60,403 nucleotides of DNA. It comes from a bacterium. Its GTDB lineage: Bacteria; Krumholzibacteriota; Krumholzibacteriia; LZORAL124-64-63. Both the position numbers and the translations under genes were made by a program. Location of the stretch: the NCBI GenBank assembly GCA_031441465.1, contig JANOEP010000036.1, positions 1 to 60,403 on the forward strand, given 5' to 3'. Below are positions 5,685-60,403 of the stretch, in pieces (positions within the stretch are counted from its first letter, which is position 1; every line of letters begins with the position of its first letter). Under the pieces are notes generated by a model, which saw only the letters and a list, made by a program, of their open reading frames with translations, was not told where the DNA came from and ran no database searches.

Positions 5685-5699
5685 CGCGATGCTTCTCCC

Positions 5700-6008
5700 T
5701 TATCGCTTCAGCCGGTTGACGGTGTCCACGTTGACCGTCCCGAAGTTGCGGAACATGGCCAGCACGATCGCCAGGGCCACGGCGGCCTCGGCCGCCGCCA
5801 GCACGATGACGAAGGCGGCCACGATGTGCCCGTCGACGCCGCCGTCGACGTAGCGGGCGAAGGCCACGAAGTTCAGGTTGGCGGCGTTGAGGATCAGTTC
5901 CACGCCCATCAGCAGGGCGACGGCGTTGCGGCGCGTCAGCACCGCGTAGAGGCCGAGCCCGAAGAGCAGGGCGCTCACGGTCAGGTAGTGCTCCAGGCCG
6001 ACGGTCAT
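5700..6008 (-). CDS. nuoK: NADH-quinone oxidoreductase subunit K
   Basis: 102 aa, RRNAVALLMGVELILNAANLN and AAAEAAVALAI. Confidence 0.95.
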   Translation of the reverse strand: MTVGLEHYLTVSALLFGLGLYAVLTRRNAVALLMGVELILNAANLNFVAFARYVDGGVDGHIVAAFVIVLAAAEAAVALAIVLAMFRNFGTVNVDTVNRLKR

Positions 6009-6553
6009 GACCGCATCCCCCCATTCCCTGCCGCATCGTCGGCGCCGTCCGTGTCGTCCTCCGGCGCGCGCTCGCGGATCAGGACGGCCGCCCCGACCAT
6101 GGCCGCCAGCAGCACCAGCGAGACGTACTCGAAGGGGAAGACGAAGCGCGTCATCAGGCTCGTGCCGATCTCGGCCACGGTCGCTTCCGGCGCGCCGGTC
6201 TCCCGCACGGGCCAGCGGGTGCCCACGATCACCATGTAGACCAGGGCGAAGGACAGCAGGGCGAGGATCGCCGCGGGCACGGCCCGGTCCAGGCCGCGGC
6301 GCGGCGCGTCGCTGCGCGGGATGCGCGTCATCATCACCGCGAAGATCACCAGCACCAGGATGCCGCCGATGTAGACGACGGTCTGGGTCACGGCCAGGAA
6401 GTCCGCCCCCAGCTGGGCGTAGAGCCCGGCCACCCCGAACAGGGTGAACAGCAGGCTGAAGGCCGCGTGCACGACGTTGCGGCTGGCCACGACGAAGAAG
6501 CCGGACAGCACCGTCAGCAGCGCGAAACCGTAGAAGACGAGGTCTCCGCTCAC
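6005..6553 (-). CDS. nuoJ: NADH-quinone oxidoreductase subunit J
   Basis: GTG start at 6553 overlaps the nuoI stop; motifs ADFLAVTQTVVYIGGILVL and PFEYVSLVLLAAMVGA. Confidence 0.9.
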   Translation of the reverse strand: MSGDLVFYGFALLTVLSGFFVVASRNVVHAAFSLLFTLFGVAGLYAQLGADFLAVTQTVVYIGGILVLVIFAVMMTRIPRSDAPRRGLDRAVPAAILALLSFALVYMVIVGTRWPVRETGAPEATVAEIGTSLMTRFVFPFEYVSLVLLAAMVGAAVLIRERAPEDDTDGADDAAGNGGMRS

Positions 6554-7110
6554 GCTCCCCCTCCTTCCGCGCCGCCGGGCGCCGTCTCCGGCAGATCCGC
6601 CCGCCGGGGCGCCTTGGCGATCCGGTCGGGGTCCGGCGGCGCCGCCGCGACCTGTTCCACGAAGTAGCCCATCTGCTGGCGGCGCTCCTTGTGGCAGGGC
6701 ACCGGCCGCGCTGGGTCGACGAACTCGTAGACCAGGCGCCGGCGGTCGTACAGCGCGTGGTCGTAGTCGAGGCTGTGCTGGCAGGCGAAGGTCGGGCACT
6801 CCTCGGTGCAGAGGCCGCACCAGATGCACTTGTTGTAGTCCACCGCGTAGCGGTGCATGAAGCGGTCCTTGCCCTTGCCCATGGTCTCGATGTAGATGCA
6901 GTCCACGGGGCAGACCTTGGCGCAGCGCAGGCAGCCGTCGCAGAGGTTCACGTCGTTGATGATGAAGCCCTTGAACCGCGCGGGCAGCACCCAGCGTTCG
7001 TCGGGGAACTGCAGCGTGACGGGCTTGCGCACCACGTGCTTGCCGGTGATCCTCATGCCCTTCAGGGCGGAGGTCACCGCTTCGTAGATATCGCGCAGAT
7101 ACTGGGTCAT
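6550..7110 (-). CDS. nuoI: NADH-quinone oxidoreductase subunit I (2x[4Fe-4S])
   Basis: From ATG 7110 (MTQYLRDIY); CDGCLRCAKVCP and CIWCGLCTEECP ferredoxin motifs. Confidence 0.92.
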   Translation of the reverse strand: MTQYLRDIYEAVTSALKGMRITGKHVVRKPVTLQFPDERWVLPARFKGFIINDVNLCDGCLRCAKVCPVDCIYIETMGKGKDRFMHRYAVDYNKCIWCGLCTEECPTFACQHSLDYDHALYDRRRLVYEFVDPARPVPCHKERRQQMGYFVEQVAAAPPDPDRIAKAPRRADLPETAPGGAEGGGA

Positions 7111-7133
7111 GTTCCGCTCCGGTGACGCGACGG

Positions 7134-8183
7134 TCAGCCCGTCTGGCCCGTCGCCAACATCCAGATGCCGGCGCCCAGGACGCAGATCAGCGCCAGGGGC
7201 ACCATCACCTTCCAGCACACGTGCATCAGCTGGTCCACGCGCAGGCGGGGCAGCGTCCAGCGCAGCCACATCTGCAGCAGCACCAGCAGCACCGCCTTGA
7301 TCACGAACACCAGGCCCGGCAGGAACACCGGCCCGAAGAGCGGCTGCCAGCCGCCCAGGAACACCGCCGTGGCGACGCAGGAAACCAGGAACAGGTTCGC
7401 GTACTCGGCCAGGAAGAAGAACGCGAAGCGCATGCCGGTGTACTCGGTGTGGTAGCCGGCCACCAGTTCCGACTCGGTCTCCGGCATATCGAAGGGCCCG
7501 CGGTTCACCTCGGCGATCGAGGCCACGAAGTACAGCAGGAACGCCACGAACAGGAAGGGATCGTGCAGGAAGTGCCAGTGCCAGATCCCGCCCTGCTGGG
7601 CGATCACGATGTCGTTCATGTTCAGCGAACCGGTGATCATCACCACCGGGATGCAGGCCAGGGTCAGCGGGATCTCGTAGCTGACGGCCTGCGCGGCGCC
7701 GCGGGCGGCGCCGTAGAGGGACCACTTGTTGTTCGAGGCCCAGCCGGCCATCAGGATGCCGATGGTGGCGGCGCTGCTGACCGCGAAGATGTAGAACAGG
7801 CCCAGGTCCAGGTCGGCGGCGATGAAGCCGGGCGCGAAGGGGATCGCGGCCCAGGCCATCAGCGAGCCGATGAAGATCACGAACGGCGCCAACAGGAACA
7901 GCGGCTTGTCGGCGTCCTGCGGGACGATGTCCTCCTTGCCGAGGATCTTCACCATGTCCGCCACCGGCTGCAGCACGCCGTGCCAGCGGCCGACGCGCAT
8001 GGGGCCGTAGCGGCTCTGGATGAAGCCGGCCACCTTGCGCTCCGCCCAGGTGAAGACGATCGCGCACAGGGCCATCACCAGCGCCATGATCAGCGCCATG
8101 GTCAGCCCGCCGGCGACCAGCAGCCCGACCGGCGAGAGCCCGTCGCCGAAGATCCGCGCAAAGAGGTCCGTCATCACTTGCAT
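7134..8183 (-). CDS. nuoH: NADH-quinone oxidoreductase subunit H
   Basis: ERKVAGFIQSRYGP, NRGPFDMPETESELVAGYHTEY and PRLRVDQL. Confidence 0.95.
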   Translation of the reverse strand: MQVMTDLFARIFGDGLSPVGLLVAGGLTMALIMALVMALCAIVFTWAERKVAGFIQSRYGPMRVGRWHGVLQPVADMVKILGKEDIVPQDADKPLFLLAPFVIFIGSLMAWAAIPFAPGFIAADLDLGLFYIFAVSSAATIGILMAGWASNNKWSLYGAARGAAQAVSYEIPLTLACIPVVMITGSLNMNDIVIAQQGGIWHWHFLHDPFLFVAFLLYFVASIAEVNRGPFDMPETESELVAGYHTEYTGMRFAFFFLAEYANLFLVSCVATAVFLGGWQPLFGPVFLPGLVFVIKAVLLVLLQMWLRWTLPRLRVDQLMHVCWKVMVPLALICVLGAGIWMLATGQTG

Positions 8184-8187
8184 GGCG

Positions 8188-9354
8188 TCACCTGTCGATC
8201 TCCCCGAGGACGATGTCCAGCGACCCGATCGTCGCCACCAGGTCGGAGAGCATCATGCCCGGCCCGACCTTCTCGATCACGTGGAGGTTCGAGAACGACG
8301 GCGAGCGCACCTTCGTGCGGAACGGCTTGCTGCCGCCGTCGGCGAAGATGTGGTACCCGATCTCGCCCTTGCTGCTCTCGGTGCGCGTGTAGAGCGAGCC
8401 CTGGGGCACCTTGACGAGCTTCTTGAGTTCCTCCGCCTTGACCGGACCGCCGGGCAGCGCGTCGACCGCCTGGCGGATGATGCGGCACGATTCGTACATC
8501 TCGCGCATGCGCACCATGTACCGGTCCCAGCAGTCGCCGACGGTGCCCTGCTCGCCCTCCCCGTAGGGGATGTCGAACTCGAAGCGGTCGTAGATGGAGT
8601 AGGGGTCGTCCTTGCGGCAGTCGAAGGGGACGCCCGCGCCGCGCAGCACCGGCCCGGTGCAGCCGTAGGCGTGGCAGGTCGCCACGTCGATGACGCCCAC
8701 GTCGGCGGTGCGCTCGATGAAGATCTTGTTGTACGACAGCAGGGTGTCGTACTCGGGGATCTTCTGCTCCATGATGTTGACGAAGTCCAGGACGTCCCGC
8801 TCGAACCCCTCGTAGGCGTCGTAGCGCAGCCCGCCGATGTCGAAGTAGTTGTAGAGCATGCGGCCGCCGCTGATGCGCTCGAGGATGTTCAGGATCTCCT
8901 CGCGCTCGCGGAAGCAGTACAGCAGCGGCGTCCAGGCGCCCATGTCCAGGCCGAAGGTGCCGATGGCGATCAGGTGGCTGGCGATGCGCTGCAGTTCGGC
9001 GCAGATGACGCGGATGTGCTCGGCCCGCTCGGGGACCTTGACCCCCAGCATCCGCTCGACCGCCACCGCGTAGCCGAAGTTCATGTTGATCGGCGCCAGG
9101 TAGTCGAAACGGTCGGTGTAGACCATCCACTGCCGCCAGTCGCAGCCCTCGGCGATCTTCTCGGCGCAGCGGTGCAGGTAGCCGATGTGGGCGGTGACCC
9201 CTTGGACGATCTCGCCGTCGGTATGCACCAGCAGCCGCAGCACGCCGTGGGTGGCCGGGTGCTGCGGGCCCATGTTGATCTCGAGCAGCTCGGAGTGCAG
9301 CTCCCGCCGCACGTCCTGCGCGCCCCAGCCGCGGCCGGTCGCCGTCTCGCTCAT
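8188..9354 (-). CDS. nuoD: NADH-quinone oxidoreductase subunit D
   Basis: NMGPQHPATHGVLRL, GYLHR, DRFDY and C-terminal GEIDR. No Ni-binding CxxC. Alternative GTG start at 9360. Confidence 0.95.
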   Translation of the reverse strand: MSETATGRGWGAQDVRRELHSELLEINMGPQHPATHGVLRLLVHTDGEIVQGVTAHIGYLHRCAEKIAEGCDWRQWMVYTDRFDYLAPINMNFGYAVAVERMLGVKVPERAEHIRVICAELQRIASHLIAIGTFGLDMGAWTPLLYCFREREEILNILERISGGRMLYNYFDIGGLRYDAYEGFERDVLDFVNIMEQKIPEYDTLLSYNKIFIERTADVGVIDVATCHAYGCTGPVLRGAGVPFDCRKDDPYSIYDRFEFDIPYGEGEQGTVGDCWDRYMVRMREMYESCRIIRQAVDALPGGPVKAEELKKLVKVPQGSLYTRTESSKGEIGYHIFADGGSKPFRTKVRSPSFSNLHVIEKVGPGMMLSDLVATIGSLDIVLGEIDR

Positions 9355-9360
9355 GCCCAC

Positions 9361-10023
9361 CTACCCTTGGTTCCCGTTTCCGGGCTGCTGCGGATCATCG
9401 GGCTTCTTGACGTCGTCGGGCAGCGTCACGCCCGCCTCATCCCACTTGCAGGCCGCGTAGTCGCGGCCGTCCAGGGGCACGCCCTGCCAGCTGCCGGGCA
9501 TCACGTAGTCCTTGCGCAGCGGGTGGCCCACCCATTCCTCGTCCAGCAGGATGCGCTTCAGGTCGGGGTGGCCCGCGAAGCGGATCCCGACGAGGTCCCA
9601 CGCCTCGCGCTCGTGCCAGGCGGCCGTCGCCCACACCGCGGCCACCGACGCCACCTGGGGCGCGGCGCGGGGCACGCGCACGAAGAGCGTGTGCTTGTGG
9701 CCGTGGCGGTGGGAGTACAGGGCGTAGGCCACGCCCAGGTCGCCGTCGCCGACGCGGTCGGAGGCCTCGGGCCGGCCCAGCTCGTCGTAGCCCAGGATGT
9801 CGACGCTCTTGCCCTTGCCCGCGGTGTCGTAGCCGTCCCAGTCCAGGCCGGCCAGGCTCATCAGGGACTCGAAACCGAGCGCGGCGTCGTCCCGCAGGAA
9901 CGCCGCGATCTCGCCGACGCGGCCGGCCGCGACCAGCGAGCCCTTCTCGAAGCTGTCCACGTAGTCCAGCACGGCGTCGCCGAACCGGCTCTGCAGCAGC
10001 GCGTGGATGGCCGTCGCTTCCAT
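9361..10023 (-). CDS. nuoC: NADH-quinone oxidoreductase subunit C
   Basis: WHEREAWDLVGIRFAGHPDLKRILL...GHPLRKDY. Confidence 0.93.
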   Translation of the reverse strand: MEATAIHALLQSRFGDAVLDYVDSFEKGSLVAAGRVGEIAAFLRDDAALGFESLMSLAGLDWDGYDTAGKGKSVDILGYDELGRPEASDRVGDGDLGVAYALYSHRHGHKHTLFVRVPRAAPQVASVAAVWATAAWHEREAWDLVGIRFAGHPDLKRILLDEEWVGHPLRKDYVMPGSWQGVPLDGRDYAACKWDEAGVTLPDDVKKPDDPQQPGNGNQG

Positions 10024-11632: not shown

Positions 11633-12715
11633 ATGCGACGCTTGATCACGCTGCTCGTGACGCTCGCCCTGGCCGCGACGGCCTCGACCACCGCCGCCGC
11701 GGAAGTCCTCACCAACCTGTTTTTCCTGCACCACTCGACCGGGCGCAACGTCATCGCCGAGGGCGACGTCCGCGACTGCATCGCGGCCCACAACGCCCAG
11801 CACGGCACCGCCTACGCGTTCTGGGACCACGACTACAACGCCCTGGGACTGACCGGCCCCGACGGCAGCCAGCCCGGCATCAGCTACCAGATCCCCGGCG
11901 ACAACACCGATCCCGACGGGCTGCTGACGTTGTGGACCACGTCCAACGGCGCCCGCAACCTCATCCTGCAGAACCACCAGGTCATCGCCTTCAAATCCTG
12001 CTACCCGGCCTCGAACATCGAGACCGACGCCGAACTCGCCGCGCGCAAGCAGTGGTACCTGCAGATGCGCGACGTGTTCGACCAGCACCCCGACCACGTG
12101 TTCGTCGTGATGAGCCAGCCGCCGCGGCACCGCCTGGCCACCAACACCGCCGAGGCGACGCGGGCCCGCGCCTTCGCCGCTTGGCTGTGCTCGGACACCT
12201 ACACGGTCGGCCACCCGAACGTCGTGGCCTTCGACCTGTTCGACCTGCTGGCCGCTCCTGACGACGGTTCCGCCGCGGCCAACCGCCTGCGGTACGCCTA
12301 CGAGCGCAGCCACAGCAGCAGCGACTCCCACCCCAACGCCGCAGCCAACGCCGCGACCGGCCCCGCGTTCGCCCAGGTGCTGATCGCGGCCTCGACGGCG
12401 CTGACGGGCACGACCAGCGCCGGAGACCTGCCGGCGGCGCCGGCGCTGCGGCTGGGCAGCTACCCCAACCCCTTCAACCCGCAGACGACGGTGACCTTCG
12501 CACTGGCGGCGCCGGCGCGGGCGCGCTTGGCGATCTACGACCTGGCCGGGGCGCTGGTGACCGTGCTGACGGACGGGACGTACGACGCCGGCGAACACGC
12601 CCTGCCCTGGGATGGCCGTCGGGCCGACGGGAGCGCCTCGCCGTCGGGCGTCTACCTCGCACGCCTGCAGACACCGGGGGCGACAGCGGCCGCCAAGCTG
12701 CAACTCGTGCGCTGA
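11633..12715 (+). CDS. Secreted protein of unknown function with C-terminal FlgD-Ig/T9SS-like domain
   Basis: GGAG RBS, signal peptide MRRLITLLVTLALAA, C-terminal YPNPFNP...WDGR...SGVYLARL...KLQLVR. Confidence 0.8.
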   Translation: MRRLITLLVTLALAATASTTAAAEVLTNLFFLHHSTGRNVIAEGDVRDCIAAHNAQHGTAYAFWDHDYNALGLTGPDGSQPGISYQIPGDNTDPDGLLTLWTTSNGARNLILQNHQVIAFKSCYPASNIETDAELAARKQWYLQMRDVFDQHPDHVFVVMSQPPRHRLATNTAEATRARAFAAWLCSDTYTVGHPNVVAFDLFDLLAAPDDGSAAANRLRYAYERSHSSSDSHPNAAANAATGPAFAQVLIAASTALTGTTSAGDLPAAPALRLGSYPNPFNPQTTVTFALAAPARARLAIYDLAGALVTVLTDGTYDAGEHALPWDGRRADGSASPSGVYLARLQTPGATAAAKLQLVR

Positions 12716-12735
12716 TCATTCGCAACAACAACTCC

Positions 12736-12769
12736 GACAGGGGCGGCATCGGCAGATGCGGCCCCTGTC
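12736..12769 (+). terminator. Putative terminator hairpin
   Basis: GACAGGGGC...GCCCCTGTC inverted repeat just after the stop codon; weak U tail. Confidence 0.5.
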
Positions 12770-12833
12770 TCGCAATCAGGCCGCAGCCAGGCTTCTGCCA
12801 CCAAACCCACCCTGCGAAGCTGATTTTGATGCT

Positions 12834-12869
12834 TATAGTTTCAACTAACAATATTTAGTATTGCCAAGA
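12834..12869. promoter_or_regulatory. Tandem DtxR/MntR-like operator boxes
   Basis: TATAG-TTTCAA-CTAAC and TTTAG-TATTGC-CAAGA, 20 bp apart in an AT-rich island; resemble TTTAG-N6-CTAAA. Confidence 0.5.
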
Positions 12870-12966
12870 ATTTTCTGGACAGGACCCCGCCCACCGCCTA
12901 GATCTGCCGGGAGAGCGTGAGAGCGATTCTCATGATCTTTCTCGACTTTTCCTGCGGAGGTTGCCG

Positions 12967-14127
12967 ATGTCCCACCTGAAAATCTACGCCGCCGCCCTGG
13001 GAGTCGGCTTCGTCATCAGCCTCGCCGCCACGGCCGGAGCCGGGGACCGCCGCCCCGCCTTGCCCGGCGGGATCGGCGACAAGCCCTACCTGTCGCGCGG
13101 CGGCGTCGACATCATGCTCGGCGGCTACATGGATCACGAGTTCGAGTGGGTCGAGGACGGCGGCAGCACCTTCGATCAGCACCGCTTCGTGCCCTTCATC
13201 ACCGCACGGGTGTCCGACCGCGTGACCGTGTCGAGCGAGATCGAGTTCGAGCACGGCGGCTTCGTCGGCGGCGACGGCGAGGGCGAGATCAAGCTGGAGT
13301 ACGCGGTCATGGACTACCGATTCCGCGAGGGCTTCCAGTTCCGCGGCGGCCTGATCCTGTCGCCCCTGGGTGCCTTCAACCTGCGCCACGACACGCCGCT
13401 GAACGACCTGACCGAGCGCCCGCTGGTGGACCGCCAGCTCGTCCCCTCGACGCTGAGCGAGGCGGGCATGGGCGTCTTCGGCACGCTCTACCCGAGCGAG
13501 GATCTCGTCCTGGGTTATGAAGCCTATCTGGTCAACGGCTTCGACGAAGGCGTGCTGTCCGGCGCCGCCGGCGACAAAAAGCTGCGAATCCGCTCGGGGC
13601 GCGGCAGCCAGGAGCAGGACAACAACCGGAACAAGGCCCTCGTCGCCCGCCTGGGCGCCAGCCCGCGCCCGGGCCTGAACCTCGGCGCCTCGATCCACAC
13701 CGGCAAGTACGACGACGCGGACGGAAAGCGCCTGACGATCGCCGCGCTCGACGGCCAGGCGGTCTTCGGCGCGCTGGAGCTGCTGGGCGAGCTGGCTTCC
13801 GCCGCGGCCGACGTCGACCGCATCGCCGAGCCGGGGCTCGCCGAAAGCCAGCACGGCGCCTACGGCCAGGTCAACTGGCACGTGCTGCACGACCGGCTGC
13901 TGCCGGGATCGGTGGTCACCCTGGTCGCACGCGCCGACGCGATGGACTACGACACCGATGTCGACGGTGACCAGGCGTCGGCGCTGACCCTGGGCGTGAA
14001 CTTCCGCCCGACCGAGGAGTCGGTCTTCAAGCTGGACTACGCCTGGTCCCGCACGACCGCGCGCGGCGCCGGCGACAGCGCGGACGCGCCCGGGCGCCTG
14101 TTCTTCTCCGTGGCCACGTACTTCTAG
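12967..14127 (+). CDS. Outer-membrane beta-barrel/porin (OprO/P-like), probable metal uptake
   Basis: Signal peptide, SEIEFEH and GEIKLEYA motifs, amphipathic strands, terminal Phe. Confidence 0.75.
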   Translation: MSHLKIYAAALGVGFVISLAATAGAGDRRPALPGGIGDKPYLSRGGVDIMLGGYMDHEFEWVEDGGSTFDQHRFVPFITARVSDRVTVSSEIEFEHGGFVGGDGEGEIKLEYAVMDYRFREGFQFRGGLILSPLGAFNLRHDTPLNDLTERPLVDRQLVPSTLSEAGMGVFGTLYPSEDLVLGYEAYLVNGFDEGVLSGAAGDKKLRIRSGRGSQEQDNNRNKALVARLGASPRPGLNLGASIHTGKYDDADGKRLTIAALDGQAVFGALELLGELASAAADVDRIAEPGLAESQHGAYGQVNWHVLHDRLLPGSVVTLVARADAMDYDTDVDGDQASALTLGVNFRPTEESVFKLDYAWSRTTARGAGDSADAPGRLFFSVATYF

Positions 14128-53291: not shown

Positions 53292-54704
53292 ATGCGCATG
53301 GGAACCGACCGACGCGACTTCCTCAAGCTGATCGTCGCTGCCACGGCCGCCTCCGCCCTGCCGGCGTGGTCCGGTTCGCCGGCGCCCGCTCCCGAGCCCA
53401 GGCCCGCGACCGCGCTCCCGCGCCGTCCCGACATTCTGGTCGTGCTGGCCGACGACCACCGCCACGACGCCCTCGGCTGCGCCGGCCACCCCTACGTGCA
53501 GACGCCCGCCCTGGACCGCGTCGCGGCCGGAGGCGTCCGCTTCACGAACGCCTGCGTGACGACCTCGCTTTGCAGCCCGTCGCGCGCCAGCTACCTGACG
53601 GGCTGCTACCCGCACCGGCACGGCCTCTGCACCAACGCCAACCGCTCCCTGAGGTCGGACCTGCCCACCTACCCGGCGCTGTTGCAGGCGGCCGGCTACG
53701 AGACGGCCTTCCTGGGCAAGTGGCACCTCGGCGAACAGACCGCCCGCCAGCCCGGCTTCGACCACTGGGCCGTGCTGCGCGGCCAGGGCGCCTACGCGCC
53801 CAACGACCTCGTGGTCGACGACCAACCCGTCCGCGAGGAACGCTACATCACCGACGCGCTCACCGAGCGCGCCGTGGAGATCATGACGCGGCCCCGCGAC
53901 AAGCCGTTGCTGCTGGTGCTGAGCCACAAGGCGGCGCACGGCCCCTTCGTACCGGCGGAACGCCATGCCCGGCTCTACGCCGACGAGGATCCGGATCTTT
54001 ACTGGGCCCCGGACGAAGACGTCTCCCGCAAGCCGTCCCGGCCGGATCGCACGACCTACGAGTCCCAGCGCGGTTCGGTCCTGGATTATTACCGCTGCCT
54101 GGCCGCCGTCGACGAGAGCATGGCCGCCCTGGACGCCGAGCTGGAGAAGACGGGCCGGCGCGACGACACGCTTCTGGTCTACACCAGCGACAACGGTTTC
54201 CTGCTCGGCGAGCACGGCGGGCTGTGGGACAAGCGCTGCGCCTACGAGCCGGCCATCCGGGTGCCGCTGCTCGTGCGCTGGCCGCGCACCCTGCCCGGCG
54301 GCGCCGTCAGCGGGGAACTGGCCCTGAACCTCGACCTGCTGCCGTCGCTGCTCGAGGCCGCGGGCGTGAAGGTCCCGCCTGGCGTCCAGGGCCGCTCCTG
54401 GCTGCCGCTCGCCCGCGGCGGGACCGGTCGCGACGAGTTCCTCTACGAGTATTTCCAGGACGAGGGCCCGGTCGGCTCGCTGGTCGCCGTGCGCACGCGC
54501 CGCTGGAAGTACGTGGCGCCCCTGGACCACCACGGCGGCCGCAACGCGCGACAGCCGGTGGAGATGTACGACCTCGCCGCCGATCCCGGCGAGCTGCGCA
54601 ACCTCGCGGGCGACCCGGCATTCGCGGCCGAACGGGAAGAACTGGAAAGAACCCTCGTGCGGCTGATGGACGAGACGGGCTACGTCTTCTGCGGGTCGCG
54701 ATGA
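53292..54704 (+). CDS. Tat-exported Cys-type sulfatase
   Basis: DRRDFLK Tat motif, ADDH, CSPSRASYLTG, GKWHLG and SDNG. Confidence 0.92.
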   Translation: MRMGTDRRDFLKLIVAATAASALPAWSGSPAPAPEPRPATALPRRPDILVVLADDHRHDALGCAGHPYVQTPALDRVAAGGVRFTNACVTTSLCSPSRASYLTGCYPHRHGLCTNANRSLRSDLPTYPALLQAAGYETAFLGKWHLGEQTARQPGFDHWAVLRGQGAYAPNDLVVDDQPVREERYITDALTERAVEIMTRPRDKPLLLVLSHKAAHGPFVPAERHARLYADEDPDLYWAPDEDVSRKPSRPDRTTYESQRGSVLDYYRCLAAVDESMAALDAELEKTGRRDDTLLVYTSDNGFLLGEHGGLWDKRCAYEPAIRVPLLVRWPRTLPGGAVSGELALNLDLLPSLLEAAGVKVPPGVQGRSWLPLARGGTGRDEFLYEYFQDEGPVGSLVAVRTRRWKYVAPLDHHGGRNARQPVEMYDLAADPGELRNLAGDPAFAAEREELERTLVRLMDETGYVFCGSR

Positions 54705-55828
54705 CGGCCGCCCCGCGCGGGCCGTCCCTGCTGCTGGTCAAGCCTGCCGGCGCCGACTGCAACTTCCGCTGCGACTACTGTTTCTACCTCGACGCCGACG
54801 CCCGCCGCGGCGCGTCCCGCCGCCGCATGAGCGACGAGGTCCTCGAACGGATGATCGCCTCCTACCTCGCGCTCGACCTGCCGGTCCACGCCTTCTGCTG
54901 GCAGGGTGGCGAACCGACGCTGATGGGTCTCGACTTTTACCGCAGGGTGACGGAACTGCAGGAGCGGCACGGCCGGCCCGGCACGGTCATCGCCAACAGC
55001 CTGCAGACCAACGCCGCGCTGATCGACGACGCGTTCGCCGATCACCTGGCCGAGTACCGCTTCCTGGTGGGGTGCAGCCTCGACGGGCCGCCGCGCCTGC
55101 ACGACCGGCGGCGGCGCGGCGCGCAGGGAGGCGCAACCCACGAACACACCGTGACCGGGTTGCGCCGGCTGCAAGCGCGGGACGTGGCGGTCAACGCCCT
55201 CTGCGTGGTCCACGACGTCAACGTCGGCCACGCACGCGAGGTGTTCGGCCATCTCGCCGGACTGGGCTTCGACCACCTGCAGTTCCTGCCCTGCGTCGAG
55301 TTCGGGCCCGATGGCGCGCCGCGGCCCTGGACGATCGACGGGCGGGGGTGGGGAGAGTTCCTGATCGGGATCTTCGAGGCGTGGCGGGACACGGGGATGA
55401 CGGTCTCGGTGCGGAACCTCGACGCCGTCCTGCAGCGATTGGTCGACGATCGGCCAGGGGACTGCACGATGGATGACAGTTGCCGGCAGTACTTGGTCGT
55501 CGAGCACGACGGGGGGTACTATCCCTGCGATTTCAACGTCTCGCCGGACCGTCGCCTGGGCAACGTCATGGACATGACGCCCGCCGCCGCGATGGCCGCG
55601 ACGGGCATGGTCGAATTCGGTGCAGGCAAGGCGCCTGCGTCGACCTCCTGTCCGGCGTGCCGGCACTTCGACATCTGCCGCGGCGGCTGCCCTGCCAGGC
55701 GCGATCCGCGCGAAGCCGCGGGCAGGGAGTGGCTGTGCGAGGGGACGCTCGCCCACCTGGACCATGCGCGAGGATATCTGGAGTTCCTGGCGGACGGGAT
55801 CCGCAGGGCGCAGCGGGAAGGCGCCTGA
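54701..55828 (+). CDS. Anaerobic sulfatase maturase (radical SAM/SPASM)
   Basis: KPAGADCNFRCDYCFY, WQGGEPTL, LQTN, YPCD and CxxC-x5-C-x3-C SPASM; ATGA overlap with the sulfatase. Confidence 0.9.
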   Translation: MTAAPRGPSLLLVKPAGADCNFRCDYCFYLDADARRGASRRRMSDEVLERMIASYLALDLPVHAFCWQGGEPTLMGLDFYRRVTELQERHGRPGTVIANSLQTNAALIDDAFADHLAEYRFLVGCSLDGPPRLHDRRRRGAQGGATHEHTVTGLRRLQARDVAVNALCVVHDVNVGHAREVFGHLAGLGFDHLQFLPCVEFGPDGAPRPWTIDGRGWGEFLIGIFEAWRDTGMTVSVRNLDAVLQRLVDDRPGDCTMDDSCRQYLVVEHDGGYYPCDFNVSPDRRLGNVMDMTPAAAMAATGMVEFGAGKAPASTSCPACRHFDICRGGCPARRDPREAAGREWLCEGTLAHLDHARGYLEFLADGIRRAQREGA

Positions 55829-55847: not shown

Positions 55848-56930
55848 TCAGGACCCGCCCCCGTTCCACGGCAGTCCGGGATCGAAGAAGTGCAGCCCCT
55901 GTCCCAGCTTCACCCCGATCACCGCTGCCGGGTAGCGCGCCACCAGCTCCGGATGCGCGAAAAACCCGGCCGCCTGCCTTTCCCCCCGCCCGACCATCTC
56001 AAAGCTGACATCCAGCGGTCGCTCGATGTTGGGGGCATAAGCCACCCGCACCAAGCACTCCGAAGCGCCCGTCTGCACAGCCCTGACCGCCGCCTCGCGC
56101 GCCCCGTACGACCCGATCCGGTCGATGTGCGAGAGGTGCTTGCCCGACAGCGCCCCGCCGCCGATCGGGATGCGCGGGCCGTAGAAGTCCATGACGAGCT
56201 TGCGGCCGGTCTGGCCGTTGTCGCCGTTGCTGCCGGCCTGCACCAGCGGGCCGTTCGGGTTGATCATCAGCCCGATCTCGTCCCAGCGGGCGCGCCAGCG
56301 CGGGTCGCGCTCCCTCGCTTCGGAGTAAGCGCGCGCGAGCACCAGCACGACCGCCTCGCAAACATCCATGAACGCGGCGTCGGCATGCTGCTGGAGCGTG
56401 ACCAGTAAATGTTCCACGATCCAGCGCCCGCCCTCCTCGCGCATACGCAGCAGCAACTTGCCGTCCGGCCCCTGCCCGGCCAGCGGTCCTTCAGCGCAGG
56501 CAGAGGCCAGCGCCTCGCGGAACACGTGGCAAAGGTAGTGTTCCGGCGGCAGGTAGCGCGTGTTCGCGTCGTAACCTGCCCAGCCCAGCACCACGCTCTG
56601 GTCGTTGACCTTCCCCGTGAACCGCGCGGGATCGTCCAGCACTTCGCACACGGCGCTGTGCACCGTGTAGCGGTTGGCGTCGACGTGGTTGCCGGGGACG
56701 TAGCCGATGTCCAGCCCCGTTTGAACCACGATGTCCCGCAGCGTGCGCGCCAGGGGCCGGCGGGTGCAGACGCCGCCCGTCAGCCAGAGTTGGCAGGACC
56801 AGACGGCGGCCTCGATCTGCGCGTAGGCGTCCGCATCGACGCCGACGCATTCGGCGACGATGGCGTCGGCGACCTGGTCGCAGAACTTGTCGGGGTGGCC
56901 GGACAGGACGATTTCGCTGATGCGGATCAT
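55848..56930 (-). CDS. Divergent methionine adenosyltransferase (MetK)-like protein
   Basis: SEIVLSGHPDKFCDQVAD, NDQS, PDGK, NPNG...GDNGQTGRKLVMDFYG and GGGALSGK...DR; 360 aa. Confidence 0.85.
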   Translation of the reverse strand: MIRISEIVLSGHPDKFCDQVADAIVAECVGVDADAYAQIEAAVWSCQLWLTGGVCTRRPLARTLRDIVVQTGLDIGYVPGNHVDANRYTVHSAVCEVLDDPARFTGKVNDQSVVLGWAGYDANTRYLPPEHYLCHVFREALASACAEGPLAGQGPDGKLLLRMREEGGRWIVEHLLVTLQQHADAAFMDVCEAVVLVLARAYSEARERDPRWRARWDEIGLMINPNGPLVQAGSNGDNGQTGRKLVMDFYGPRIPIGGGALSGKHLSHIDRIGSYGAREAAVRAVQTGASECLVRVAYAPNIERPLDVSFEMVGRGERQAAGFFAHPELVARYPAAVIGVKLGQGLHFFDPGLPWNGGGS

Positions 56931-58309
56931 GTGCGGTTTCCTTTCAGTTCCGGGAGCTGGGTGTAGGCGAGGCCGGCGCGCTCCAGCGCGGCGGGATTGC
57001 CGTCGCGGCTGACCAGCACGTGCAGCTTCGTGCCGGACGCCCTCGCCACGAGCTGCGGGTCCAGGGCCTCGATGTAGCCGTCGGTGACCACCACGGCGGA
57101 GGCCGGGCGCGTCCTGATCACGTGTTCCAGCACGCAGGACAGGCTGGTGCCGCCCGTGGTCTGAGCCTTCAGGACGCCGCGCTCGATGACGGCGGGCGCG
57201 ACGACGTCGCTGAAGGCCCAGAACGGCCGGCGGATCAGGCCGGAGAGCTGGCCGAGCAGGTTCACGATCTGCGGCATCTCGGCGTGCATGGATCCCGACA
57301 CGTCCAGGTAGACCTGGGCCGTGCCGGCGCGGCGCGGCGCGGACCCCTCCCAGGCCGCTTCCGGCAGGAAGGGCGTCCACTGCGCGCGCAGGAAGGCGCG
57401 GCGGTCTCCCGACGACAGCACCGGCAGCCGGTAGTCGCACGGGGAGTCGACGCGGCGCCGTGAGCGGCGATCGGGCGAGAGATGGCGGCGGAGGATCGCG
57501 AGCGTCGTCGCCCGCCAGCGCCGCAACGGCGCGTCGTCCGCCCTGATGAGCGCCTCGTAGGGGTTGGCGCCGACGCCGCGGCTGCCGGGTGAACGCCAGA
57601 TGCCGTGGCCGTTCATCTCCTTCATCGCCCGCTCCAGGGCGTCGCGCAGGGGACCCACCAGTTCTTGGTCGAACTCGTCGTGGTTGCCCAGCAGGTCGCC
57701 GGGCTCGTCGGACCCGTCGTCCCCGAACGTGAAGGGCCCCGGGCCCTGCACCTCCGTCGACGGATTCTCGAGCTGCTCCGCCAGGGCTTCGATGTCGTCG
57801 GCGATCAGTCCGCCCCGGTACAGCGACTCCCAGGCCAGAACCCAGGACGGCAACCGGCTCCGCTCCTCGCAACTGCGGACGGTCTTCAAACAGTCGGACT
57901 CCTGCGCGCCCATCGGTCGCAGCAGCTTGCGGCGGCCGGCCGCCTTCGCGTAGTAGCGCGCGAAGATCGAGGAGTACCCCGGCCCGTGCTGACGGTGGAT
58001 GATGGCGTTGATCACGGCGTCGACGGCCAGATGACGGGCCGGCGTCACCGGCCGCCTCTGCTCGGTGTGGCGCAGGATCACGTGCAGGAACTCGTGACAG
58101 ACGACCGCCTTCACCTCGTCGTCGTTCGCGCAATGCCCGCCGATGAAGTCGAGGTTGACCAGCAGCCGCGGACGGTCCGTGCAGGTCACGGCCAAGGTCA
58201 GCACCGCCGTGGTGAATTCGATCTCCAGGATCTGCAGCGCGGCTCGGATGGCGAAGGGGTTCTCGTCGATCAGCTCCAGCAGGATCGAGCGGAAGCGTCG
58301 TTCGTTCAT
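56927..58309 (-). CDS. HExxH putative metallopeptidase plus vWA domain protein (DUF2201-like MoxR partner)
   Basis: HEFLHVILRH...AVDAVIN; MIDAS DVSGS, GGTS and VVTDG. Confidence 0.85.
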   Translation of the reverse strand: MNERRFRSILLELIDENPFAIRAALQILEIEFTTAVLTLAVTCTDRPRLLVNLDFIGGHCANDDEVKAVVCHEFLHVILRHTEQRRPVTPARHLAVDAVINAIIHRQHGPGYSSIFARYYAKAAGRRKLLRPMGAQESDCLKTVRSCEERSRLPSWVLAWESLYRGGLIADDIEALAEQLENPSTEVQGPGPFTFGDDGSDEPGDLLGNHDEFDQELVGPLRDALERAMKEMNGHGIWRSPGSRGVGANPYEALIRADDAPLRRWRATTLAILRRHLSPDRRSRRRVDSPCDYRLPVLSSGDRRAFLRAQWTPFLPEAAWEGSAPRRAGTAQVYLDVSGSMHAEMPQIVNLLGQLSGLIRRPFWAFSDVVAPAVIERGVLKAQTTGGTSLSCVLEHVIRTRPASAVVVTDGYIEALDPQLVARASGTKLHVLVSRDGNPAALERAGLAYTQLPELKGNRT

Positions 58310-58773
58310 GAGTAGAATCCATCCAGGTCGAAGAGTTCGAGACCGCGTCCGAGGCTGGCCTCGGTCCAGAGCACCGGCCGCGCCGGGTCGTAGATCTGCG
58401 CCGTGCAGAGGCCCAGCATCAGCGCCTGGCGCAGCACCGCAGTGCGTTGGCCGCTTGCCGCGGACAGCCGCGGGGCATCGGGAGGCAGCGACCGGCAGAC
58501 CAGTCGCCTCTCCGGCAACTGGAACACGCCCCGCAGGTCTTCGGGATCGGCGTAGCCGGCTTCGGCCAGCAGGTTCTCCAGCGCCTCGACACGCGTCGGT
58601 GCGGCGAAATGGAGGCCCAAGCGGATCACGCACGGGCAGCGGATCTCGCCGTCGTCCTTGCCGAGCAGCGAGGAAGCGACCGTCTCGGTGCGGGTGCGGC
58701 TCATGGGGCCGCCCATGTTGGCGCGCAGGACGGGCCGCCGCTCCGTCTGCGCACACCATCCCGAGGCGATCAT
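58306..58773 (-). CDS. Hypothetical protein (155 aa; alternative start 58704)
   Basis: Fills the gap exactly, with ATGA overlaps to both neighbours; no recognisable motif. Confidence 0.55.
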   Translation of the reverse strand: MIASGWCAQTERRPVLRANMGGPMSRTRTETVASSLLGKDDGEIRCPCVIRLGLHFAAPTRVEALENLLAEAGYADPEDLRGVFQLPERRLVCRSLPPDAPRLSAASGQRTAVLRQALMLGLCTAQIYDPARPVLWTEASLGRGLELFDLDGFYS

Positions 58774-60170
58774 CGTTGCCACCATTCCGCGAGGTACCTG
58801 GCGCAGTCCTCGATCTCCTGCTCCAGCGCGGCCGGGTCCTCGGGACTGACCCGCTCGACCAGGCACCAGTTGAAGTACTGGCGCGCCCGCTCGTAGCGCC
58901 CGCTGTCGGCCTCCAAATCGGCGAGCACACGCGCGAAACGGTCGCAGTCGGGATGGACCGTGCCCTGCTCGGCGATGCGTTCCTGCCAGGAGATCTCGCC
59001 CGCCACCGACAAGATGGGAGCGGCCGCCTTGGCGAGGTCGTTGACCCCCTCCGCCCCGATGAAGAGAAAGCCCTTCGCCGCGGCCGCGTACGTGGCGAAG
59101 GCGAAGGCCGCGGCCCGTTCCTTGGATTCCGAAGCCAGCAGCTGGGCCACGGCCTGGGAGCACAGGTCCGGAGTCCGGCCGTGCTCGCCCAGGATCTTCA
59201 CCTTCCGCACCAGGGGATTCTCGACCAGGAATCGGTGGATCCAGCCGTCCTCGAACGGCGAGATGCAATCCAGCGCGTAGCGGTGAGCCGCCGCGACGGC
59301 TTCCTCCCTGACTTTCACCCCCCAGGTCCGCTGCGGCAGGCTGGCCTGGAGCACGCACAGGCACATCTGGTCGGTCGTCTCACCCGCGACGATCGTTGCT
59401 GCCAGCAGGCTGCGCACCATCAACCGCACGCGGCGCGGCGACACGCGGATGCCCGCGCTGTTGAGCGCCGAGACCGCGTGGACCATGTAGACCAGGATGC
59501 GTTCGGGGCAATCCTCGACCTGCTCGCGGAAGGTCTGTCGCCACGTTTCGACCAGCCCCTTGAGCCGCCCCGCGTCGTCCGCGATCCTCCCTTCTCCGCT
59601 CGGGTCGGCGATGAGCCGCCGCGCCTCATCGTCCAGACCTCTCCAGTCCGACGCTTCCACGAACAGCGCAAACCGATCGGCCAGTGCCTGATCCAGCGGC
59701 TCCGACCCCGCGTAGTCCTCGGCCCCCCCCCGGTCGGCCGAGCACGGGTTCATCGCCGCCCACCGGTAACGCAGCCTGGGCAGCGCGATCCCCTGGATCC
59801 GGCGCTCGTGCACGAGCGCGAACAGGCGGTTCTGGTGCTCGGGCTTGCAGCGGCTGATCTCGTCGATCAGCACCGACTCGGCGCCCCAGACCGTGGCCGG
59901 TGTTTCGAGAAATTTCACGGCGCCGCGCTCCTGGTCCGGATACGGGAACCCGACCAGGTCGTCGAACGAGATCAGGCTGGCGTTGTAGTGGCGGTGTTCG
60001 AGGCCCAGGGCTTCGGAGAGGGAATTGAGCAGGAAGGTCTTGCCGGTGCCCGAGGCCCCGATCAGCAGCAACGGGTCCTCGGTGACCAGCGCGGCCAGGA
60101 TCACTGGCTCGAGCCGGTCGAATCCGTAGACGCCGAGATCGCACAGGTGGGAATGCGCACGGGTAGGCAC
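58770..60170 (-). CDS. MoxR-like AAA+ ATPase
   Basis: Walker A GASGTGKT, Walker B VLIDE, AAMNP sensor, LDQALADRF Arg finger; AGGAGG RBS before GTG. Confidence 0.9.
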   Translation of the reverse strand: MPTRAHSHLCDLGVYGFDRLEPVILAALVTEDPLLLIGASGTGKTFLLNSLSEALGLEHRHYNASLISFDDLVGFPYPDQERGAVKFLETPATVWGAESVLIDEISRCKPEHQNRLFALVHERRIQGIALPRLRYRWAAMNPCSADRGGAEDYAGSEPLDQALADRFALFVEASDWRGLDDEARRLIADPSGEGRIADDAGRLKGLVETWRQTFREQVEDCPERILVYMVHAVSALNSAGIRVSPRRVRLMVRSLLAATIVAGETTDQMCLCVLQASLPQRTWGVKVREEAVAAAHRYALDCISPFEDGWIHRFLVENPLVRKVKILGEHGRTPDLCSQAVAQLLASESKERAAAFAFATYAAAAKGFLFIGAEGVNDLAKAAAPILSVAGEISWQERIAEQGTVHPDCDRFARVLADLEADSGRYERARQYFNWCLVERVSPEDPAALEQEIEDCARYLAEWWQR

Positions 60171-60175
60171 GTCGT

Positions 60176-60233
60176 CCTCCTTTTAGCGGGTTTGCCGGTA
60201 TGGCGGGGCCGCAAGCTGGATTCAAATCCCCCG
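60176..60233 (-). ncRNA. SAM-II (SAM-alpha)-like riboswitch
   Basis: Minus strand reads CGGGG-GATTTG-AATCCA-GCTTGC-GG-CCCCG-17 nt-GCTAAAAGGAGG. It shows a P1 stem, the GAUUU/UUGC/GCUAAA hallmarks and a pseudoknot pairing into the SD sequence. Confidence 0.75.
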
Positions 60234-60257
60234 GCCCGTCAGGTGGGCCAGCCCTCG

Positions 60258-60289
60258 GTCGGCGCCGCCGCGTTGCGGCGGTCGCCGAC
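60258..60289 (-). other. GC-rich hairpin after the metK stop (terminator-like or RNA-processing element)
   Basis: GTCGGCG(A)CCGCCGC-aac-GCGGCGGCGCCGAC; no U tract. Confidence 0.5.
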
Positions 60290-60308: not shown

Positions 60309-60403
60309 TCACGTGGCGACGTGTTCCCACAGGAAGTCCGGCTCCTCGCGCCCGAAGTGCCCGTAGGCCGCCGTGTCGTAGTAGATGGGCCGCAGCAGTC
60401 GCA
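60309..60403 (-). CDS. metK: 3' end of S-adenosylmethionine synthetase (partial)
   Basis: Manual translation [30 protein letters not shown] matches the canonical MetK C-terminus. Confidence 0.8.

Follow-up and report, generated by a model that had tools for sequence, protein, structure and literature searches.

The window analysed here, i.e., the whole of the 60,403-nucleotide contig JANOEP010000036.1 (G000:C36 in our numbering) from a bacterium of the phylum Krumholzibacteriota, carries on its minus strand a four-gene operon headed by a predicted S-adenosylmethionine (SAM) riboswitch of SAM-II type. In order, the four genes encode a MoxR-like AAA+ ATPase, a small protein of 155 aa (UNK), a protein combining an HExxH zincin domain with a VWA domain, and a divergent paralogue of the SAM synthetase MetK (MKL). 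We propose, with a rough probability of 45%, that the operon represents a mobile module, induced when SAM is low, in which the AAA+, VWA and UNK proteins would serve MKL as an active adenosyltransferase, a proposal that draws on gene linkage and on analogy with the NorQ-NorD and CbbQ-CbbO pairs. SAM synthesis is not known to need helpers beyond a single enzyme, MetK. The features of the locus are as follows.

60309..60403, minus strand: 3' end (31 codons plus stop) of metK2, a canonical-type second metK truncated by the contig end; MetK C-terminus seen in the translation, stop at 60311-60309
60176..60249, minus strand: SAM-II-type riboswitch variant; Rfam SAM_alpha 14.5 bits, covariance model R1 78.7 bits
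58770..60170, minus strand: MoxR-like AAA+ ATPase, 466 aa; Pfam AAA_5 and AAA_3, Walker A and B motifs
58306..58773, minus strand: UNK, small protein, 155 aa; no match in Pfam, NCBIfam or PADLOC
56927..58309, minus strand: HExxH zincin and VWA/MIDAS protein, 460 aa; invariant motifs, VWA fold match
55848..56930, minus strand: MKL, divergent MetK paralogue, 360 aa; Pfam S-AdoMet_synt_N and S-AdoMet_synt_C

All four genes are joined by ATGA stop-start overlaps (58773-58770, 58309-58306 and 56930-56927), and the AAA+ gene starts with a GTG codon at 60170, five bases downstream of a ribosome-binding site (RBS) with the sequence AAGGAGG at 60182-60176. This chain and its three overlaps had been reported in a preliminary description of the locus, and their coordinates were reproduced exactly. 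The placement of the operon downstream of another metK, also reported there, agrees with the last 31 codons of metK2 upstream and with the full metK present in same-genus loci. The interval from metK2 to the AAA+ gene contained neither promoter-like nor terminator-like sites. Immediately after the metK2 stop, at 60258-60288 on the minus strand, lies a long hairpin rich in GC (GTCGGCG...CGCCGAC around CCGCCGC/GCGGCGG) that has no U-tract.

To place the operon in a wider context, one genome per species was scanned for relatives of MKL, which yielded 246 confirmed relatives, and the best 80 loci (designated by the letter L) were kept. Amongst these, 58 with at least 3.4 kb of sequence upstream of the MKL gene were considered informative. 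The order AAA-UNK-VWA-MKL was found in 57 of the 58, in 56 by tblastn and in one (L084) through detection of UNK with a profile; the single exception, L037, is a fragment. In the 22 shorter loci, the VWA gene, and more of the cassette where the flank allows, was in place in 19, while two begin inside MKL and L045, with 1.8 kb upstream, gave no VWA match. The hosts belong to more than 10 phyla, including Latescibacterota, Elusimicrobia, Proteobacteria, Acidobacteria, Chloroflexi, Verrucomicrobia, Armatimonadetes, Gemmatimonadetes, Spirochaetes and Bacteroidetes. Given that 57 of 58 loci keep all four genes in order, the arrangement is far beyond chance. The neighbourhood search suggested in the preliminary description thus found the four genes together and in order across phyla, and the refuting condition named there, a MetK-like gene that is not conserved beside MoxR/vWA, was not borne out.

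MKL is predicted to have the fold of the bacterial methionine adenosyltransferases (MATs) with a re-tooled methionine pocket. Its S-AdoMet_synt_N (48.6 bits) and S-AdoMet_synt_C (70 bits) domains scored above the Pfam cut-offs and S-AdoMet_synt_M (18 bits) below, and the protein, which shares approximately 31% identity with the MetK of its own genome, reached 136.6 bits against the metK equivalog TIGR01034, for which the cut-off is 309.4. In order to compare the active sites, we mapped MKL residues on E. coli MetK through a HMMER alignment to 1fug, setting 86 members of the MKL family against 10 canonical MetKs. The ligands of ATP, ribose, Mg/K and triphosphate were retained in the 86 members, i.e., the equivalents of His14, Asp16, Lys17, Glu42, Asp118, Asp163, Lys165, Asp238, Arg244, Lys245, Lys265 and Asp271. 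In E. coli MetK, the amino group of methionine is held by Glu55, its carboxylate by Gln98 and Lys269, and its side chain by Ile102, according to the part of the source consulted (PMC3853416). All four of these methionine contacts are replaced in MKL. The position of Glu55 is occupied by Gly, Ile or Val, and by Glu in 0 of 86 sequences; that of Gln98 is variable; Ile102 is replaced by Pro in 81 of 86 and Lys269 by His in 86 of 86. In addition, Leu takes the place of the adenine-stacking Phe230 in 71 of 86. The family also possesses Cys and His residues of its own (C17 in 97%, C95 in 95%, H268 in 100% and H131 in 86%), as well as C55, C145 and H265, which are conserved in part only, and an inserted D-x-R-W motif. 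Judging from these alignments, the methionine pocket of MKL is rebuilt and has not merely drifted. The possibility that MKL is a catalytically dead decoy was rejected as unlikely, since none of the ATP and triphosphate ligands varies.

The AAA+ protein exceeded both relevant Pfam cut-offs (AAA_5, 33.7 bits with a cut-off of 22; AAA_3, 28.8 bits with a cut-off of 27), and its translation contains intact Walker A (GASGTGKT) and Walker B (VLIDE, in VLIDEIS) motifs followed by a C-terminal extension of approximately 220 aa. Its identity among related loci ranged from 34 to 79%. The VWA partner is encoded in the same chain of overlapping genes, two positions downstream. This protein scored below the Pfam cut-offs for DUF2201 (23.6 bits, cut-off 26.4) and DUF2201_N (18.9 bits, cut-off 23.2), and would be, at best, a distant relative of these families. 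In an alignment of 46 sequences, however low those scores, the zincin residues H72-E73-x-x-H76 and H81 were invariant, as were the MIDAS residues D336-x-S338-x-S340, T388 and D410. A structure model of the protein had a predicted local distance difference test (pLDDT) value of 83.8, and in Foldseek searches its C-terminal domain matched VWA folds (19 matches at E<=0.001), the VWA domain of ANTXR2 (E=2.9e-5) and NorD in NorQD complexes (9qhd_G, E=6.2e-5) being amongst the top matches.

UNK matched nothing in Pfam, NCBIfam or PADLOC. An alignment of 48 sequences revealed a conserved N-terminal motif, NxGGPMSRTRxExIxSSLLG, within a protein whose first 44 residues were modelled as disordered and whose C-terminal alpha/beta domain (residues approximately 45-150, ending in ELFDxxGFY) was modelled confidently by AlphaFold2 (pLDDT 84.7 overall and at least 96 at residues 50-150). 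By Foldseek, this model had no match in the PDB at E<=0.001; a wide VIA-align search gave a best Z of 2.5, and the ESM Atlas no usable match. On these models, no family can be named for UNK from fold searches, which does not in itself prove a new fold. A profile search of 1.84 billion representatives found 355 relatives at E<=0.001, and amongst the 150 of these that were listed (51-277 aa) no fusion to other domains was visible. The idea that UNK is a RiPP-like (ribosomally synthesized and post-translationally modified peptide) or methionine-bearing substrate of MKL found no support and was rejected, since the GGPMSR motif does not keep its Met, with S, Q, R, C and T also occurring at that position. 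Complex prediction for VWA, MKL and UNK, with UNK as partner, returned a score of 0.18 (mark 0.32), which weighs neither way on binding.

The leader of the operon was next compared with known SAM-sensing RNAs. No match at Rfam gathering level was found in the window, and at the E-value threshold SAM_alpha (RF00521) matched positions 60163-60242 of the minus strand with 14.5 bits (E=1), the gathering score being 36. The leader can be folded into a hairpin P0 (approximately 60249-60233), a helix P1 (60233-60229 with 60208-60204) whose loop holds AUUUG...CUUG, and a pseudoknot P2a (60212-60209, GCGG, with 60189-60186, CCGC), after which a CUAAAA tail leads directly into the AAGGAGG of the RBS (60182-60176), with the GTG start 5 nt further downstream. 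The same element was present in related leaders from Betaproteobacteria, Gemmatimonadetes, Acidobacteria, Lysobacterales and others. In a manual parse, P1 and P2a were paired in 13 of 13 leaders, with compensatory changes of P2a, e.g., from GCGG/CCGC to GUGC/GCAC and GCAG/CUGC. A covariance model, R1, was then built on eight leaders; together with the manual parse, it replaced MAFFT alignments, which misaligned divergent members. R1 scored 78.7 bits on the window RNA and gave 47 matches in 85 sources, of which three are probably false. In the resulting alignment, which was fitted to P1 and not to P2a and includes non-independent kin, 92.5% of cells were paired and nine of the 10 pairs changed on both sides; the covariation score of 0.350, compared with 0.086 for shuffled and at most 0.079 for slid alignments, was reached by 0 of 500 shuffles. 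The label of SAM-II-like RNA given to the head of the operon in the preliminary description is therefore right on comparative evidence, i.e., the covariation of P1 and pseudoknot, and not on the Rfam score, and the window RNA appears to define a SAM-II variant missed by Rfam's model.

SAM-sensing elements were also detected ahead of the related cassettes. Combining Rfam, R1 and nhmmer profiles, which were seeded with Rfam-validated matches so that many of their matches are the seeds themselves, a SAM element was found in 42 of the 58 leaders. Another four of the 58 have a SAM element ahead of metK2, and in one (L077) it was seen by eye only. A gathering-level Rfam search of 38 loci placed SAM-I or SAM-I/IV immediately 5' of the AAA+ gene in 14; in four others, SAM-II or SAM-I/IV preceded a leading metK2. 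Canonical SAM-II copies in related loci scored 37.3-43.6 bits; sub-threshold SAM or SAM_alpha matches of 28-35 bits were obtained in L039, L029 (two), L024 and L057, and sub-threshold SAM_alpha matches in L029, L024 and L184 scored 30.4-34.2 bits. Three aptamer types (SAM-I, SAM-I/IV and SAM-II-type) are thus predicted from sequence to control the operon. The SAM-sensing leader of the preliminary description is borne out, and SAM-I or SAM-I/IV aptamers above the Rfam cut-offs take its place in other phyla. These riboswitch types are unrelated, and the convergent regulation indicates that the unit answers SAM shortage.

Many of the leaders are tandem, with SAM-II and a terminator followed by SAM-II at the RBS, or SAM-II followed by SAM-I/IV. 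In same-genus loci, a TTGACA-type promoter, SAM-II and a terminator precede metK2, and a second SAM-II precedes the AAA+ gene. In loci of Caulobacteraceae and Sphingomonadaceae, the AAA+ gene is preceded by consecutive SAM-I/IV aptamers separated by short open reading frames (ORFs), namely three in L034 (5472-6774) and two in L070 (5993-6710). In the deltaproteobacterial locus L042, a SAM-II element of 43.6 bits heads a cluster in which the leading metK is separated from the AAA+ gene by a PNP_UDP_1 gene of the methylthioadenosine/S-adenosylhomocysteine nucleosidase type (3861-4574).

The metK2 fragment was 72% identical to housekeeping MetK over residues 342-366 by tblastn. The housekeeping metK is complete on contig C54 and distinct from metK2, the remainder of which is missing from the assembly. 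Three same-genus loci (L014-L016, at approximately 5360-6630) contain a full metK2 of 391-392 aa with all three Pfam S-AdoMet_synt domains. Overall, a canonical-type metK was found upstream of the cassette in 10 of the 80 loci. Seven of these 10 (L014-L016, L047, L030, L028 and L087) form a metK2 subfamily, in which ACETLLADQ... replaces ACETLVTTG... and each member has its own SAM riboswitch. Given that its members are 57-77% identical to one another across phyla and 54-56% identical to this genome's own MetK, metK2 travels with the cassette.

The VWA protein was present in five of seven genomes of the genus and in 11 of 208 genomes of the phylum, and cassette copies from other phyla were 50-67% identical. 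From these sequence comparisons, the cassette is most likely widespread but patchy, and horizontally mobile. In the genome as a whole (completeness 96.8%), a search at E<=0.01 revealed no further SAM-I or SAM-I/IV aptamer, and other SAM-II elements were absent at gathering level, which suggests that the riboswitch arrived, and travels, with the module. In L018, an excisionase-like helix-turn-helix gene, a phage-type integrase gene and a tRNA gene (12159-13900) directly follow the cassette, and in L038 an integrase gene (7156-8250) does so, which suggests carriage on integrative elements. By tblastn at E<=1e-10, the VWA protein had no match in 72,556 plasmids and 50,697 phage records, and IMG/VR contained nothing beyond MAT genes of 23-28% identity. 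A more distant, type-2 cassette occurs in a neighbouring genus (L184, G013:C4:219000-229500, 4631-9572; L185, G007:C386). Its AAA+ protein is 41%, its long VWA ORF approximately 30% and its MAT-like protein 34% identical to those of the window, no UNK homologue was detectable, and a SAM_alpha match of 30.4 bits lies upstream. The type-2 MAT-like protein has Arg for Glu55, and keeps Lys269 and both family cysteines (the C17 and C95 equivalents).

Pfam analysis of 258 flanking ORFs from 37 loci identified no fifth conserved gene, but many genes of mobile or defence type. PADLOC was run on 150 of the 258, a biased sample made up of a first batch, from which the metK2 ORFs and four long frames of L016 had been removed, and of 14 ORFs chosen for their Pfam flags. 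Near full-length matches within 3.5 kb of the cassette were PLD_Helicase (L077, 719 bits), Hhe (L042, 950 bits), mREase_IV (L074, 774 bits), DruM2 and DruF2 (L034, 478 and 401 bits) and SoFic (L053, 377 bits), with weaker matches in seven loci (L040, L062, L024, L047, L072, L085 and L028). None of the four cassette proteins had a convincing PADLOC match, the best being mad8 at 22.7 bits over the P-loop. In the window itself, the neighbouring genes encode a sulfatase, a radical-SAM maturase and a transporter. The sulfatase gene and the radical-SAM gene, which is anaerobic sulfatase-maturase-like (CxxxCxxC), lie on the plus strand at 53292-55828 and converge on the MKL gene, the stops being approximately 20 bases apart.

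We suggest that the module operates as follows. In the genus, the order would be promoter, SAM-II with terminator, metK2, a second SAM-II-type riboswitch masking the RBS, and then the AAA+, UNK, zincin-VWA and MKL genes. When SAM is plentiful, the 3' tail of the riboswitch (CCGCUAAAA) would be held in the pseudoknot, hiding AAGGAGG and leaving the four genes untranslated; when SAM falls, all four proteins would be made. MKL would bind ATP and handle triphosphate like MetK, with a rebuilt acceptor pocket. Because that pocket is altered, plain SAM synthesis is not the expected activity, and MKL would most likely be an adenosyltransferase that backs up or extends the SAM supply, its acceptor being methionine bound in a new manner or a related thioether. 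Much as in the NorQ-NorD or CbbQ-CbbO pairs, UNK would join the AAA+ ring and the MIDAS/zincin protein in a machine dedicated to the assembly, activation or turnover of MKL.

Several observations weigh against this proposal. No riboswitch was found by any method in 11 of the 58 leaders, and the genome already holds a housekeeping metK. A genome of the same class (G038, family f5; L186, G038:C5 217-4936, minus strand) contains AAA-UNK-VWA without MKL, downstream of a SAM-I/IV riboswitch of 66.2 bits, with two unrelated chained ORFs (281 and 128 aa) after the VWA gene and with the N-terminal GGPMSRTR motif of UNK degraded, which indicates that the trio can work without MKL. In archaeal MATs, as described in the consulted part of PMC3853416, His and Asn bind the methionine carboxylate, so that the change from Lys to His in MKL does not alone exclude methionine. 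The patchy spread (11 of 208 genomes of the phylum) and the defence genes beside several copies would fit a role in conflict equally well. Set against these points, the preliminary interpretation of a low-SAM-induced AAA+/VWA module acting on a MAT-fold enzyme retains the conserved unit across phyla, the SAM-sensing leader, the second metK upstream and the lack of a prior description, while its strict form, with MKL as the client, is opposed by the reduced copy in G038.

Since several copies adjoin defence genes, the module may instead have a defence-linked role, although this is unlikely; the cassette would then be a conflict module whose SAM riboswitches sense a phage-induced collapse of SAM, e.g., by phage SAM lyases. 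Its output would be either the restoration of SAM for SAM-dependent defences (restriction-modification, BREX and Druantia methylases) or the unleashing of a MAT-derived, ATP-cleaving effector gated by the MoxR, VWA and protease components. The distribution resembles that produced by horizontal gene transfer (five of seven genomes in the genus against 11 of 208 in the phylum, with 50-67% identity to copies in other phyla), the sensor travels with the module in a genome devoid of other SAM-I, SAM-I/IV or gathering-level SAM-II elements, strong PADLOC matches adjoin L077, L034, L042, L074 and L053, and integrases lie beside L018 and L038. Tandem riboswitches would, moreover, suggest expression solely at severe SAM loss, judging from the sections consulted of PMC9481103. 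On the other side, the cassette proteins lack a convincing PADLOC match, the defence-gene counts are raw and carry no background density, with the second PADLOC batch chosen by Pfam flags, and the neighbours in the window are of another kind. Homologues were also absent from the plasmid and phage records, MAT genes of 23-28% identity being the sole matches in IMG/VR, and an effector triggered by ordinary methionine starvation would be costly. A more specific version, in which the aptamers act as an immune sensor of phage SAM destruction and switch on a MetK-derived enzyme, gated by MoxR, VWA and zincin, that resupplies SAM by an unblockable form or route or burns ATP to abort infection, appears quite improbable. 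If true, a metabolite-sensing RNA would for the first time be the trigger of a defence or counter-counter-defence system.

Two further alternatives concern the client of the trio and the chemistry of MKL. The AAA+, UNK and VWA proteins may serve another client, such as housekeeping MetK, metK2 or another SAM-dependent protein, with MKL as a co-regulated spare isozyme that makes SAM. The MKL-free reduced form, still behind a SAM-I/IV riboswitch, argues for this, as do the metK2 subfamily that accompanies the cassette (a leading metK in 10 of 80 loci, with 57-77% mutual identity against 54-56% to host MetK) and the retention by MKL of all triphosphate and ribose ligands. We nevertheless consider it doubtful, as the 4-nt overlap between the VWA and MKL genes and the presence of MKL in 57 of 58 loci are tighter than expected of a passenger, and all four known methionine contacts have changed. 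Known MoxR-VWA pairs serve in the insertion of metal cofactors, and the pair might likewise insert a metal into MKL in the style of NorQD or CoxDE, with C17, C95, H268 and H131 forming a candidate site in the former methionine pocket for a new adenosylation chemistry. The Cys and His gains are indeed conserved relative to canonical MetK, the C17 and C95 equivalents are kept in the type-2 cassette, and NorD is a top fold match of the VWA domain; C55, C145 and H265 are, however, conserved in part only, and neither NorD nor CoxE has an equivalent of the zincin domain. Metallocentre maturation seems highly doubtful. We retain as our working model the low-SAM-induced module in which the trio would serve MKL.

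The interest of the system lies in a re-tooled MetK paralogue that is tied, in more than 10 phyla, to a chaperone-like AAA+/VWA/protease trio and to a protein that matches no known fold. Its study might uncover a new kind of adenosylation or a route of SAM salvage, provide the first MoxR/VWA client in cofactor supply, or disclose a link between phage SAM depletion and host defence. The four-gene SAM-riboswitch unit is apparently undescribed. No publication on this operon was found in a literature search, the scope of which lay outside subscription journals and supplements, and the earlier statement that no MoxR-vWA system tied to SAM metabolism had been described holds for the searchable papers, in which we found no such description.

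Amongst known systems, NorQ-NorD and CbbQ-CbbO are similar in that a MoxR-like AAA+ gene, a VWA gene with a complete MIDAS and a putative client enzyme share an operon. Unlike them, the cassette has an N-terminal HExxH zincin domain on its VWA protein, an obligatory third component that is small and has no known fold, a MAT-fold enzyme as its presumed client, and SAM riboswitches over the whole unit. MKL shares with MetK the fold, the domain order and the ATP, ribose, Mg/K and triphosphate ligands, but differs in falling below the equivalog cut-off, in its replaced methionine contacts, in the D-x-R-W insert and in the family Cys and His residues. Four MoxR-vWA ternary conflict systems, involving VMAP, iSTAND, FtsH and beta-propeller components, are described in the consulted part of Kaur et al. 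(2020; PMC7159879), in which SAM synthetase is not mentioned. The cassette resembles these in its MoxR and vWA core, third conserved component, patchy spread and presence of some copies in defence islands; in contrast, by Pfam, UNK and MKL are not VMAP, iSTAND, FtsH or propeller proteins, bpMoxR scored 17.3 bits (cut-off 27), and riboswitch control is not a feature of the systems in that part of the paper.

The window RNA shares with SAM-II (RF00521) the AUUUG/CUUG/CUAAA core, P1 with an H-type pseudoknot, and a tail by the RBS, but departs from it in the G-richness of P1, in an additional hairpin on the 5' side and in a small hairpin within loop 3. Tandem SAM-II elements have been catalogued, with 44 doublets and seven tandems of SAM-II and SAM-I/IV, in the sections consulted of Sherlock et al. 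(2022; PMC9481103), the text of which, to that extent, does not name the cassette genes or contain the word "ATPase". As in those tandems, relatives of the window RNA have a first SAM-II with a terminator and a second at the RBS; unlike the tandems in those sections, the two riboswitches of this genus are separated by the entire metK2 gene.

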